From the NCBI RefSeq assembly GCF_036588685.1, contig NC_086375.1, positions 72,664,001 to 72,728,000 of the forward strand: DNA of 64,000 nt, read 5' to 3'. Shown here one piece after another: positions 34,301 through 40,300 of the stretch. Position 1 is the first letter of the stretch. Each line of letters opens with the position of its first letter. A program made the translations under genes and the position numbers. The stretch is from Mytilus trossulus. Lineage: Eukaryota. The notes beneath the pieces were generated by a model, which was not told the DNA's origin, did not search any database, and saw only the letters and a program-made list of their open reading frames with translations.

Positions 34301-37300
34301 GAGCTTAACTTCATGTTGCTGTTGGTGATGAATGTACATTGTAGCTGTTTTAATACCTCAGAATTAACCTATCAGTAAGTCTATGTTACTATGCATTAAC
34401 AATAAATTTTCACATCATTCTGCAATTTTGAGTGAGTTTAGTAAACAATCATTTTTTTTTCCTTTTTAGGTCAATTGGAATATCATGAATATTGCAGATC
34501 TGAATATCACTAACATGGTACATGTGGTGCAACTTAACAAAATAAAGTCCCAGACCAAACAACAAATCATTTCACAATTCTGAAGCTGAGACATTATATC
34601 ACAAATAAAGTCTGAAATGACTGACTGACAATTTAAACCAAAGAATACAACCATGTATAATCAGATTTATAATCAAAATCAACCATGACTTCTACATGCT
34701 TAAGCTCACATTATGGCATACAGCTGTTCCTTTGCTTTTGTTATTCGTTTACATGTGTGTACTCTTGTTATTCGTCACATTGTTGTAAATCACCATATAC
34801 ATAATATATATCTTGGCATTGCATAACAAAAATCAACTAGTTATGACATCAAATAAATTTCTAATAATAACCTAAATTTTGTATCACAATAAAGACAATA
34901 ACTGACCTTAGATACCAAGCATTGTAATCTATCAAAGGTTTTACTACGGGTTCTTAATTTTATTGACTTTTTCAAAGCTGCACAATTTGGTTAATTTTAT
35001 GAAGTATTGACTAAATTGAAGAGCGACAAATGAGTCTTTAATCATGTGCATAAACCACTAAAAAGTTCAAAGTTCATGCTTACTTGCAACACAAATCTTT
35101 GATCAATATATTTCTTCCCTGTATTTGGCTGAAAGTCCGGAGACTCTAAAAACCGCAGAAAAAATTCATACACAAGCTGAAAAATAAAATAGAAAACAAA
35201 ATGAAATAGTCTGCCATTAAAGATATAGATAATGCATGAAACAGCTTTTAATAGGTTGTTTACACGGCTGATACATGTACACCCAAATTAGATGAAGAAA
35301 TATAAACTGTTGTGAAGTTTTTGTCAATAACACTTACAACAGAATTATTTCACACATTGACAGTGGCTGTGATAAACAGAATTATTTTTCATTTATCACT
35401 GATTATAAGTTTAAAATAAACTTATTTGATTCAGCTTTCTTGTCAGTAGATGATTTTGTTCAAACAATCTGTAAATAATATAAAACAATAAACTGTTTCT
35501 GTTGGTACAGATATATTTCTCGCCTGAATGTAATTTTAATAATACAACACAAATGTGGAAATTAGCAATACTTTAACAATCAACATGTATACTACTCTAA
35601 ATACTCAGTCAATGAACCAAGAAAGAAGAAAGAAGAAAGAGAGGACAATTATTTCTAAGATTTAAGATATACCAATGATAACACAACTGCATACTAAATA
35701 TAATTGACTTATCAAAGACGGTTCCTCTTAAACTGACGTTTCAAGGTCAATAGACCACAGCGACAATAATCATGGTGGTAGAAAAAGTCTTAGAAAGTTC
35801 CTTAATACTTGCAACTCTACAGTGCATTTTACAGTAAACAAACATGAAAGGTTTGCTTCTGTGCATCAGCTTTAATCCTCACATACACAAATTTTAAGTG
35901 TGCTTTGGTTTATATTCATTTGTTTTGAATAAACAAAACAAATTTCATGTATGCATTCCTAATAATAGAAATATGTTATAGATTGATTGATCGGTGGATA
36001 ACGCCACTTCAAGCAGATTGATTGCTCGGTGTTTAATGCCACTTCAAGCACTACTGTATTGTTTCATGGGGTCAGTTTTTATTGGAGGAAACCTGGCCTT
36101 GAAGGCATAAAAATCATGCTCGAAACATGAAATCCAGCAATTTGATTGGTTGATTTTCGAGTCCGAGTACAAAAATCATGTTCGAAAGTTTTATGACCGT
36201 GAGGCCTGAATGCCAAGAAAGTACCAATGACCTTTGATAGGAAAACTTGACCTTCCTAGTCAATTAAGAATATATGATGTATAGTAAATCAATAAGGCAT
36301 AATTATGTGGGATATTACATGAATGATTATATAAATTTCAAAACAAAAGTCAATAAAACAGCTTTGAGTTAACAAACAAACAGTCTTCCATGGTAAATAA
36401 ATGAAACGTAAACAAAAGCTTTGAGTTAACAAACAAAACAGTCTTCCACGGTAAATAAAGAAACGTAAACAAATAAAAAATAAAAACATGTTTTGGTGTA
36501 ACTGAAAACCTTATGTAAAATATTTATAAGTATAAAACCCAAACCCATCAGATTGCACTTAATAACAATAACAATACAAATATGTAACATTTACAAAATG
36601 CTAAACAACAGGACTTTCTTCACATATCCTAAAGTAATAATGAGCTTTGTTTTGAAACTTTATTTTGTATCTGAAATTGATTTCTTGTTTCTTAGTCATT
36701 GAGCATATTTTTCTTATTTACCTTCAAATGTTACCATTTAAAACTTTTTTTATTTTCCTGTAAATGTGGCCACAATGCCTCTGATATTTATGTGGCACTG
36801 TTGCTTATCTGTAAATGTGGCCATGATGCCTCTTATATTTATGTGGCACTGTTGCTTACCTGTAAATGTGGCGATGATGCCTCATATTTTTGGGTAAATG
36901 TTTCTTTCCTATAAATGTGGCCATGATGCCTCTTATATTTTTGGGTTAATGTTGCTTACCTGTAAATGTGGCCATGATGCCTATTATATTTATGTGGCAC
37001 TGTTGCTTACCTGTAAATGTGGCCATGATGCCTCTTATATTTTTGGGTTAATGTTGCTTACCTGTAAATGTGGCCATGATGCCTCTTATATTTTTGGGTA
37101 AATGTTTCTTACCTGTAAATGTGGCCATGATGCCTCTTATATTTTTGGGTAAATGTTTCTTACCTGTAAATGTAGCCATGATGCCTCTTATATTTTTAGG
37201 TAAATGTTTCTTACCTGTAAATGTGGCCATGATGCCTCTTATATTTTTGGGTAAATGTTTCTTACCTGTAAATGTAGCCATGATGCCTCTTATATTTTTG

Positions 37301-40300
37301 GGTAAATGTTTCTTACCTGTAAATGTAGCCATGATGCCTCTTATATTTTTAGGTAAATGTTTCTTACCTGTAAATGTGGCCATGATGCCTCTTATATTTT
37401 TGGGTAAATGTTTCTTACCTGTAAATGTGGCCATGATGCCTCTAATGCAGGTTCATCTTCTTCTGGGTCAAACTCTGCACCATGGGGATTTGATGAGGGA
37501 GGTAATGTTCTGAATAAATTTACACTAAACTGAAAAGGAAAAGAAAAATCTAACATATACAAATCCTTTTGAGTGATGAGTTCATTCAACTATCAGCATA
37601 TATAGTGCATCTTCTTTTGAGAATTATAAGTACACACAAGGAGGTTATATGACATCCTTGGTACAAATGCAAACATGTTTGCTTTACTCTGACAATCTAT
37701 ACCTTTTTAGAGACAACACGAACACTGAAAGTAGAGCAAAATTGATTTTATAGTTATTATTCCTGACAGTGATTTTTTTTTTATTATCTGCTAGCAATTA
37801 TGGTGTAAAATCAATTTAAATCATATCTGACAGACAAAAGCAACCTAAACATATGAACTCAGTTATAATTGTATTGAAATTAAATAACTCAAGTGATATC
37901 CAATTCTCTCTTCTTATCAAACTTAAGAAATAAACAATGAGGCCAACCTTAAAAATATGTTTGTTTGCAGTTTTCCGACTGTACCTTCAGACTGAAGGGT
38001 CGGTAGGTAGGAAAAATATTTTATTTTATCAGCCAAAATACAGTTTAAACAACTAAGTTTCTTGTGAAGAAAAAAAACATTTTAAAACAACAATCACTGG
38101 ACATGCTGAAAACCAACATCAAATGAACAGGCATTTTCAGATAAAAAACTTTTTAACCAAAACTTTAACATAGTGTCATCCAATTTAAATAAAATATGGT
38201 GTAATTATTAAATACTGGAACACTTATAAACAAGGAATGTCATCATGACTAGAACTGTTTTAAAGAAATATATTCAGACATGTATGCTTCTTGACTAGAA
38301 TGTTTTCATGAGTAGAGTATTTTCATCAGAAAAATGTATATATTATAGATTTATAAGACAATTATTAAAGAGTGTATTTTTAATAAAAAAAATAACCATT
38401 GAATCTTCCTCAATTGAAAAAAAGGCAACTTGAAAAAAAAGTATTAAGACATCCGACTGTTTTCATATTTCTAACAATATTTAATTATATGTGATAAGGT
38501 TATATTTTTGCCAGGCTTTAATGAAAACCAAAGAAATCTAAAGTTTGGGGTGAAATCCATAGCACCCCATTAAAAGTAAATGGTCTGTACTGAAATGTTT
38601 TTAATGCATAAAAAAAATTGGCAGCATAGCTCCTAAGGACATGTTTTAATTGAATTCACACAGGCCACACAGTTTGGGTATATTTAATATTGTAAGAAAG
38701 AGAATAATTGCAATGAGTGGGGCAGCCCCCCTTATCCTAAAGGAGCATACTCATTGCAATCGAAGATAGATTTAATATAGAGAGAGTATATTTATTTTTC
38801 AAGCTAACCATTCATTTTCTCTACATCTTTGTGTAGTTAGGGTTGCTTCTTATTGATTTGGCATGATCTATATCCATTAACATTTCAAATGAGCCCTTCC
38901 TCCGTACAGGCGTGTTTACAGATATCCATGAAGATTTAAGTCACGGAGGAGTGGTTTCATCTTTGTCGTCTTCACAACGATTTGTAGAAAATATGCCATA
39001 CTTCAAGCTGCTGTCGAATTATTCAACCACTGAAATTGGTTCCGTAAACTGATAAAGTCAGGCTCCCCAGATTCTGAACCCGAGTTGTTTGAGACAGAAT
39101 GGTTATCGTGTCAGTTATGAATATCCGCTGCATCATCGTCAATGATATCATCACACATCATTACATGTGCCTGAATCTGTATAAACAGTTTACTAATAAA
39201 CTTTTTTGTTTGTTATTTGTCTTAAACATGTTAAAATTGACACAAGACAACAGCGTAAAGTACTCCTCCGTGACTTCATGGATACCTGTAAACAATTTCC
39301 ATGTGCTTTATCATTAAATGGTCACATGAACGCTTGACGGGAAGCTAAGAAAAAACGAACTTGAAATGCGTAATTGACCCAGACTTTAAATCATTTCCGG
39401 AAAGGACAGAAAGTTCCGGATCGCGTCAATAGTGGTATTAAAAAAAAATTCTTCAAATTTAAAGCAATAAAATTTTCACAGTCGGGAGGTTTTTCAAGGG
39501 TCGGTCGGTAAACTGCAAACAAACAATATTTTAATTTAAGCCTGATTATGTAATTTAAGAAGCATCTGATGAAAGATTAAGGTGATGTCTAGACAGCTGG
39601 AAATCAAAATGTGTAATTCACCATTCTGAACAAATGGTCTCCTATGTTGGTTCTGTGGACTATCAAACTTATCTTGGGATTTGAGATACAGACTCTATTT
39701 TAAAATTTGAAGGAGAACTGACAAAAAATCTAGGTGTTAAAAGTGGTACAAGAAATTTTATTGGTTATCTATGAAAGATTCCCCTTTTGAAAAAAAGTCC
39801 TACGTTTCAGATTTTTCTTCAGTTCTAAAAATGAAGGCAGTAGGATAGTAAAATCAAAGAAATGACTGATTGATGGGTCAAAAACACACTATATTCAATG
39901 AGATCCTATGAGACAATAAAAAGATATAACAAGGACAGCGACTGAGGTTTATAATTTACCATATGTATAGCTTCAGGATAGATAGGTTCTGTGATGACAC
40001 CTCTATTGTGCGATACGAACTCCACCATTTCATTCAGTGCTGCCCTCTTCACTTCTTTCCATTTTAAATCACTAAGAGGGTCTATTACAAAGTCAAATAG
40101 AACACAACATTGCCGGATTTTCTGAATGAATAAATCTTCTCTTTCTGCTGGTGTTGAATCTGTAGAGAGAAAAAAGACAATTAATACAGCTATTTATTAT
40201 TTTGTTAAAAATGTTGAAATGAAATAAGCTATACCTGTCAGAAAGTGGTTCTCACAATTATCAATTTTCACCATTATATTTATTTTTTTGTCCGAAAAAT

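Follow-up and report, generated by a model that had tools for sequence, protein, structure and literature searches.

Minisatellites placed over an exon-intron boundary can repeat the splice donor itself, and the closest described system of this kind is the variable-number tandem repeat (VNTR) with 37-bp units in human F7 intron 7 (IVS7), whose first unit spans the donor. As far as the available portion of that report goes, the wild type uses the first donor only, the next donor becomes active once the first is destroyed, and pseudo-sites compete only at perfect consensus (CV 100) (PMC1557585, Borensztajn et al. 2006). In the same portion, 50 extra clones gave no other product, no autonomous intronic regulatory element was found, and the choice of 5′ splice site among reiterated donors was tested with 50 F7 constructs as early as 2006 (PMC1557585). 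This source also describes IFI6 (6-16) intron 2, with 25 pseudo-sites of which two are used besides the real donor, the 31-bp VNTR of CBS intron 13 (15-20 repeats), with two pseudo-sites likewise in use, and the LMNB2 and PDGF minisatellites, for which the part available gives use of the real donor only (PMC1557585); a review, also available in part, adds that more CBS repeats go with lower activity (PMC5188458). In amphioxus, the so-called mirages of Adh3 and of the globin genes BflGb6 and BflGb9 were reported, in the excerpt at hand, to combine normal splicing with length instability and unhomogenised edges, and were proposed as a source of new introns (PMC3087553). An array of the same general design was found in a 64-kb window of Mytilus trossulus NC_086375.1, where the donor of coding exon 5 in a protein phosphatase 2A (PP2A) regulatory subunit gene is repeated along the start of intron 5, and this mussel array is a splice-junction minisatellite of the F7/mirage class. 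Positions below are those of the whole window, in which array and gene lie on the minus strand.

The exon 5 donor array of a mussel PPP2R5 gene

Judged by its sequence, the host gene is a Mytilus-type gene for a PP2A B56 gamma/delta-type regulatory subunit (PPP2R5). Exon 5 matched PP2A B56 gamma in a phmmer search of PDB (E 3e-18), the closest solved structures being B56 gamma and delta; its 37 residues are 100% identical to two proteins named Mytilus edulis (PPP2R5), and the B56 domain (PF01603) is present in all 120 homologues listed, which are the best 120 of 2068. The gene has 16 exons, running from 49960 to 24899, and their GT-AG splicing gives a product of 551 aa with 0 mismatches to protein P0017. 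Coding exon 5 (37529-37419, 111 nt, phase 0/0) is followed by intron 5 (37418-35177, 2242 nt, GT-AG), in which the array takes up the first 0.7 kb and 1.5 kb lies beyond it, and then by coding exon 6 (35176-35084, 93 nt), which has a strong acceptor at 35176. By matrix score the splice sites of exon 5 are in the top class within the gene (donor 12.0, acceptor 15.0), and its donor is a near-perfect match to U1 (9/11).

Tandem Repeats Finder placed the array at 36757-37443, with a period of 51, 13.5 copies, 92% matches and a score of 1115, and splitting of the minus strand yielded 14 exon-end copies starting at 37442, 37391 and so on down to 36781. Both agree with an earlier reading of this DNA, made from the letters alone (the original prediction), which had announced 14 tandem copies of the exon 5 donor junction in units of 51 bp; its division of the unit into 23 exonic, 5 donor and 23 further intronic nucleotides was incorrect. 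The unit consists of 24 nt of exon end (8 codons, EASWPHLQ) and 27 nt of intron start, the exon part reaching 25 nt if a shared A at 37443 is counted. It was also correctly predicted that CAG/GTAAG is intact in 11 of the 14 copies (1-10 and 12) and that GT is destroyed at 36909 (TAG/GAAAG), 36809 (CAG/ATAAG) and 36758 (CAG/GAAAA). The 13 downstream copies include six donors identical to the real one (CAG/GTAAGA), four with C at +6 and three without GT, and the intact ones score 11.3-12.0 on the donor matrix against 12.0 for the real exon 5 donor.

Copy 1 (37392-37442) holds the last 24 nt of exon 5, the genuine donor CAG/GTAAGA at 37419/37418 and 27 nt of intron ending in an in-frame TAA. Copies 2-7 (37086-37391) form a homogeneous block with 0-1 differences from copy 1 and pseudo-donors CAG/GTAAGA at 37368, 37317, 37266, 37215, 37164 and 37113; a C>T in copies 3, 4 and 6 would change P to L. 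The pseudo-donors of copies 8-10 (36933-37085) are CAG/GTAAGC, at 37062, 37011 and 36960, and their intron parts are of two subtypes (2 and 6 differences). Copies 11-14 (36752-36932), in which the three GT losses lie and GT is intact at 36860, make up a ragged distal end that varies in other haplotypes; copy 11 is 49 nt long, and copy 14 retains its exon part and a few letters only. A degenerate fifteenth junction relic (36711-36736) stands 36 nt beyond copy 14, with AAG/GTAAAT at 36722/36721 and 15 of 20 letters matching the unit core (5 mismatches). Outside the array and besides this relic, the whole window contains, on both strands, one other match at 5 or fewer mismatches. It lies in the exon 11 donor context (30687-30668, minus strand; SPHFQ codons, CAG/GTAAT), which shares 16/20 letters with the array core, a resemblance likely due to chance from similar codons.

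Ten distinct unit sequences occur among the 14 copies. Copies 8, 10 and 11 differ from copy 1 at 2-3 positions and copies 9, 12 and 13, which carry the second subtype, at 6-7, copy 14 being partial. Divergence from copy 1 grows with distance (Spearman rho 0.86, p 0.0002, for n = 13 non-independent copies), and this gradient is driven mainly by the second intron-part subtype (copies 9, 12, 13) and by copy 14. In this respect, the decay away from the exon that had been proposed was borne out for overall divergence. The loss of GT, however, is not strictly distal, for copy 12 (36860), flanked by a dead copy on each side, is intact, and the fifteenth relic also keeps GT. A structural masking of the pseudo-donors was considered and dropped, as RNA folding was unremarkable and revealed no stable structure masking the copies (z -0.85; 17 of 100 shuffles were equally stable).

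The array was followed in four sequencing runs (X1, X3, X8 and X12) of the 24 listed, all of them in the form of contigs; X8 and X12 come from the same study, are classed as RNA by guess, and have much intron and repeat cover. In each of the four runs, contigs cover the array-only bins (depth x length 257-9563), X3 being filed under another organism label, and array-like contigs are in this way spread over four runs, three studies and two organism labels. One X1 haplotype is identical to the window at a depth of about 27-35, and possibly represents the source sample, so that it is non-independent. The distal array end differs in the second X1 haplotype (depth 18.4), in X8 and in X12, and collapsed contigs give no per-allele copy number; contig depth was rejected as a measure of copy number for the same reason, namely that contigs collapse the repeat. 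Between the downstream flank and an exon-end copy of 30-31 letters with donor CAG/GTAAAT, the second X1 haplotype and X12 have 37 or 15 other letters, which resemble one more degenerate copy of the junction, spaced at about 34 nt. Record 26 of X8 ends at the same point (36772) with 34 unaligned letters, and in both X8 and X12 copies 13-14 (36749-36838) bear two substitutions and adjoin a different sequence. For these alleles the alignment lists a skip of 612 nt (36751>37364) or 591 nt. The reading of the 612-nt skip as an array-less haplotype was not adopted, since several copies would match the piece of 30-31 letters and, in an equal-depth row (37394>36749), its other side carries sequence of a distal copy; the skip rows agree better with one additional distal copy, and these alleles may be shorter or longer. 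The array is real and shared, with variation at its far end, and at that edge an older layer of junction copies spaced 34-36 nt may lie beneath the 51-nt layer. A search for the exon end plus donor gave 0 matches in metagenome contigs, a collection expected to hold little mussel DNA and hence uninformative.

Donor choice at exon 5

Reading through past the first donor gives VRNIYPKI followed by a stop, as had been predicted, and in the spliced reading frame this stop (TAA, 37394-37392) is codon 202. Any of the ten intact downstream donors, and the relic donor as well, would lead to this same stop with 11 mapped junctions downstream of it, and use of donor 2 or 3 would lengthen exon 5 to 162 or 213 nt only. 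Under the rules of exon-junction-dependent decay, RNA with such a premature stop should be degraded, and the downstream-donor RNAs of the mussel gene would be expected to be decay substrates. Skipping of exon 5 keeps the reading frame (514 aa), and its product would escape decay.

The run contigs bear on which donor is used. The exon 6-7 splice joint (34277>35084) is present in X8 and X12, and for the X8 contig that carries it (depth 7.09) the bin depths predicted were 4.487 over exon 7 and 1.747 and 4.560 over exon 6, the last with one intron contig, against observed values of 4.49, 1.75 and 4.56. For the exon 5 bin of X8, 3.80 was observed, where 3.802 is predicted for 111 nt and 4.04 if the contig continued into the array; by this depth arithmetic, the spliced contig covers 110.7-111.2 nt of the bin. 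Since the bin fits 111 nt, the assembled X8 transcript, a single low-depth contig read through its bin depth, most likely ends exon 5 at 37419, the first donor. The depth of X12 over exon 5 is 0, which makes this run uninformative on the exon 5-6 junction. At the protein level, the mussel-type sequences among the best 120 of 2068 homologues comprise isoforms from five NCBI assemblies and two from run contigs. HLQ is joined to LVY in all 19 full-length mussel-type proteins listed, and the VRNIY continuation follows in 0 of the 121 WPHLQ contexts of these best 120. These proteins show that products of the first donor are made, but not that there are no others.

Taken together, the array is probably a tolerated by-product of repeat turnover. 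Ordinary tandem duplication over the exon 5 donor has likely left ten additional intact donors in intron 5, and splicing likely stays with the genuine first donor, the copies being largely silent. By analogy with F7, the most upstream functional donor would win because it pairs with the acceptor to define exon 5 and is transcribed first, and the array would therefore be tolerated. Rare slips to downstream donors would be removed by nonsense-mediated decay. The pattern of the copies suggests recent turnover among copies 1-7, nearest the exon, through slippage or unequal exchange, and a far edge that escapes homogenisation and decays.

Several points weigh against this account. IFI6/6-16 and CBS do use downstream copies, and CBS repeats lower activity, while the strength of the mussel donor (9/11 U1 match) is near the level at which the F7 pseudo-sites started competing (CV 100), as far as the portions available of those reports describe it (PMC1557585, PMC5188458). 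GT is kept in 10 of 13 downstream copies, as a young age would predict, and this retention is counted on the same side. The 15 joints listed, of 25, do not include the one between exons 5 and 6, and the X8 result comes from one low-depth contig in one run that is labelled RNA by guess and holds DNA too. Moreover, contigs drop rare forms, decay would hide the products of donor 2, and annotated proteins would not reliably show truncated forms.

Origin of the array and competing explanations

Among the WPHLQ contexts of the homologues, 47 of 121 continue with V, that is, GT read through, at the same intron position. As divergent homologues share this position, intron 5 would predate the repeat, and by this comparison it is not a case of intron gain. 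The original prediction had offered the locus as a test of tandem-duplication models of intron gain, a proposal that fails on the shared intron position and on the placement of the copies inside an existing intron. As acceptors the copies are poor. They lack a pyrimidine tract, having 4-5 T among the 13 positions from -16 to -4 where 15 real acceptors have 6-11, and their acceptor matrix scores run from -0.1 to 2.1, whereas the real ones have a median of 7.8 (3 of 15 real acceptors score as low, and the matrix is small).

Homogenisation with the array had also been suggested to alter the coding exon. The exon part is altered in 7 of the 13 downstream copies (P>L three times, two stops, W>S and S>L), yet none of these changes is found in exon 5 or in the 19 mussel-type proteins listed, and EASWPHLQ is unchanged in 19/19 at the protein level, so that conversion of the exon from the array finds no trace there.

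The same gene holds a second boundary duplication, at 29640-29829 (minus strand), in which tandem duplication of a 99-nt unit has placed one additional exon 12 acceptor at 29763, upstream of the real one at 29664, and this copy scores as strong (10.8). It can be viewed as the acceptor-side mirror of the exon 5 donor array. The first 23 nt of exon 12 (VAERALYF) are also copied upstream, followed by an in-frame TAA and a weak AAG/GTGTTT donor at 29734, and from this layout the acceptor copy could possibly form a 29-nt poison micro-exon. A chance test confined to this gene, with 9 arrays in 25 kb and 31 splice sites, gave an expectation of 0.75 seeds over a splice site and P(>=2) of 0.175, and by coverage 1.86 sites are expected (P 0.56). 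These small numbers fit chance for two junction-covering repeats in such a repeat-rich gene, and nothing in them requires a special mechanism.

Other explanations place more weight on the downstream donors. Donors 2-3 (37368, 37317) might be used appreciably without any selection, adding 51 or 102 nt and the stop at codon 202, so that the resulting RNAs would be decayed and longer or more homogeneous arrays would slightly lower B56 output as a side effect. A low-level leak to these two donors with decay, as in CBS, is plausible, given pseudo-donors identical to the real donor at a spacing of 51 nt, which would keep the extended exon short, and given that in the available parts of the human reports two pseudo-sites are used in CBS and 6-16 (PMC1557585) and a link is drawn between the number of CBS repeats and reduced activity (PMC5188458). 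Nevertheless, the X8 contig fits an exon 5 of 111 nt only and no downstream-donor joint is among the 15 of 25 joints listed, and appreciable leakage is considered a minority prospect, of modest probability. The original prediction had gone further and seen in the decoy U1 sites either a copy-number-dependent rheostat or U1-binding enhancers. That the donors are strong and near-identical to the real one holds, and the presence of array-like contigs under both organism labels indicates that the array is not private to one assembly, its distal end being polymorphic and every downstream choice a clean decay substrate. However, neither downstream use nor an effect on expression appears in the analysed contigs, the X8 contig and the F7 precedent both point to the first donor, junction-covering repeats occur at about the chance rate in this gene, and the exon 5 sites are already of the strongest class and need no help from additional U1 sites; the excerpt on F7, moreover, gives no autonomous intronic regulatory element (PMC1557585). 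A selected rheostat tuning the PP2A-B56 dose, or a U1-loading enhancer helping to define exon 5, is thus very improbable. It is likewise improbable that allele copy number sets the PP2A-B56 dose through unproductive splicing helped by the exon 12 boundary copy with its 29-nt poison micro-exon.

A recursive route would treat each CAG/GT as acceptor and then donor and remove intron 5 in 51-nt steps, or would have a new intron forming in the manner of Rogers. AGGT is indeed present in every intact copy, splicing from donor 1 to the CAG of any copy would rebuild the same junction, and the model has been published (PMC4974935) and was proposed for mirages in the accessible part of that work (PMC3087553). 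Nonetheless, the missing pyrimidine tract and the acceptor scores, the latter as low in 3 of 15 real acceptors, stand against recursion, and the old position of the intron (47/121 contexts) against intron gain, which makes this route highly improbable. Lowest of all stands the chance that the array was inflated or created by mis-assembly. No contig spans it in any of the four runs, and bins 36998-37204 are empty in X1, X12 and X3; a repeat of 51 nt is, however, expected to collapse in short-word contigs, every run has contigs over the array-only bins, and the ten distinct unit sequences with their interleaved subtypes speak against an artefact. The tolerated by-product of repeat turnover is therefore retained as the probable explanation.

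The surroundings of the array are themselves rich in repeats, tandem repeats making up about 7% of the window, with related 170-196 nt satellite-like arrays at 4554-5113, 13828-14511 and 28559-29259. In intron 4, a high-copy element of 1.6 kb (37938-39542) reaches a contig depth in the thousands, compared with about 50, and bears terminal inverted repeats of 60 nt (75%) as well as internal ones. It is absent from the second X1 haplotype, X8 and X3 (joint 37937>39543), and looks like a non-autonomous DNA transposon insertion polymorphism. Within intron 5, a very high-copy insert of 113 nt (36092-36204; depth near 100,000 in X1) is missing in X1, X8 and X12 contigs (joint 36091>36205) and is a small mobile-element polymorphism. 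At the 3′ end of the gene, alternative last exons lie within 19168-24935 (minus strand), at 24935-24899, 22194-22018 and 19323-19168 (two frames), and match different isoform C-termini.

Relation to known splice-junction minisatellites

No paper on this mussel locus was found in the literature, in which subscription journals were thinly covered. The locus had been put forward as a novel natural test of 5′ splice-site choice, a claim overtaken by the F7 constructs published in 2006 (PMC1557585). Nevertheless, since mussels are highly polymorphic and haplotypes vary at the distal end of this array, the locus could offer a convenient natural allelic series for the first-donor preference of strong donors outside mammals. 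A greater importance would follow only if downstream donors were used in proportion to copy number, for which CBS is a human precedent and the mussel offers no support; were the dose-setting reading true, the array would act as a heritable dial of expression, the first such case among splice-junction minisatellites of invertebrates.

Tandem repeats affect splicing in general, and the available part of the source that treats them includes no donor-reiterating case (PMC10078293). Against the Rogers model, in which introns are gained by AGGT tandem duplication (ATP2A1; a potato RdRp case; PMC4974935, available in part), the mussel array shares AGGT in a tandem unit. However, the model duplicates an exonic segment and creates a new intron, whereas the mussel copies sit in an old intron and lack a pyrimidine tract. 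The amphioxus mirages are closer, being minisatellite-like boundary duplications of a marine invertebrate at donor and acceptor sides, with haplotypes that differ and edges that escape homogenisation, although they concern cephalochordate genes and the present array a bivalve PP2A subunit gene. The human CBS, IFI6, LMNB2 and PDGF repeats resemble it as minisatellites at an exon-intron boundary that reiterate a donor 10-25 times, a comparable copy number; CBS and 6-16 differ in that downstream pseudo-sites are in use and in that CBS copy number is tied to activity.

F7 remains the nearest parallel. In both genes, the first monomer lies over an internal exon donor, pseudo-donors follow in the intron and the array varies, in the mussel at its distal end, and in F7 the first donor gives normal mRNA. 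The mussel unit is longer (51 nt with 24 nt of exon, against 37 nt with 4 nt), its copies are more numerous (14 against 5-9), and its donor is near-consensus (CAG/GTAAGA, against TGG/GTGGGT in F7); a stop follows every downstream donor in the mussel, whereas some F7 donors have none, and F7 rests on splicing experiments, the mussel case being known from sequence and contigs. Thus, the architecture is already known from F7, CBS, IFI6, LMNB2, PDGF and the amphioxus mirages, and what is new is its occurrence in a bivalve PP2A gene, a clean further example of tolerated reiterated donors, by which the F7/mirage pattern is now seen in a bivalve and with a donor close to consensus.

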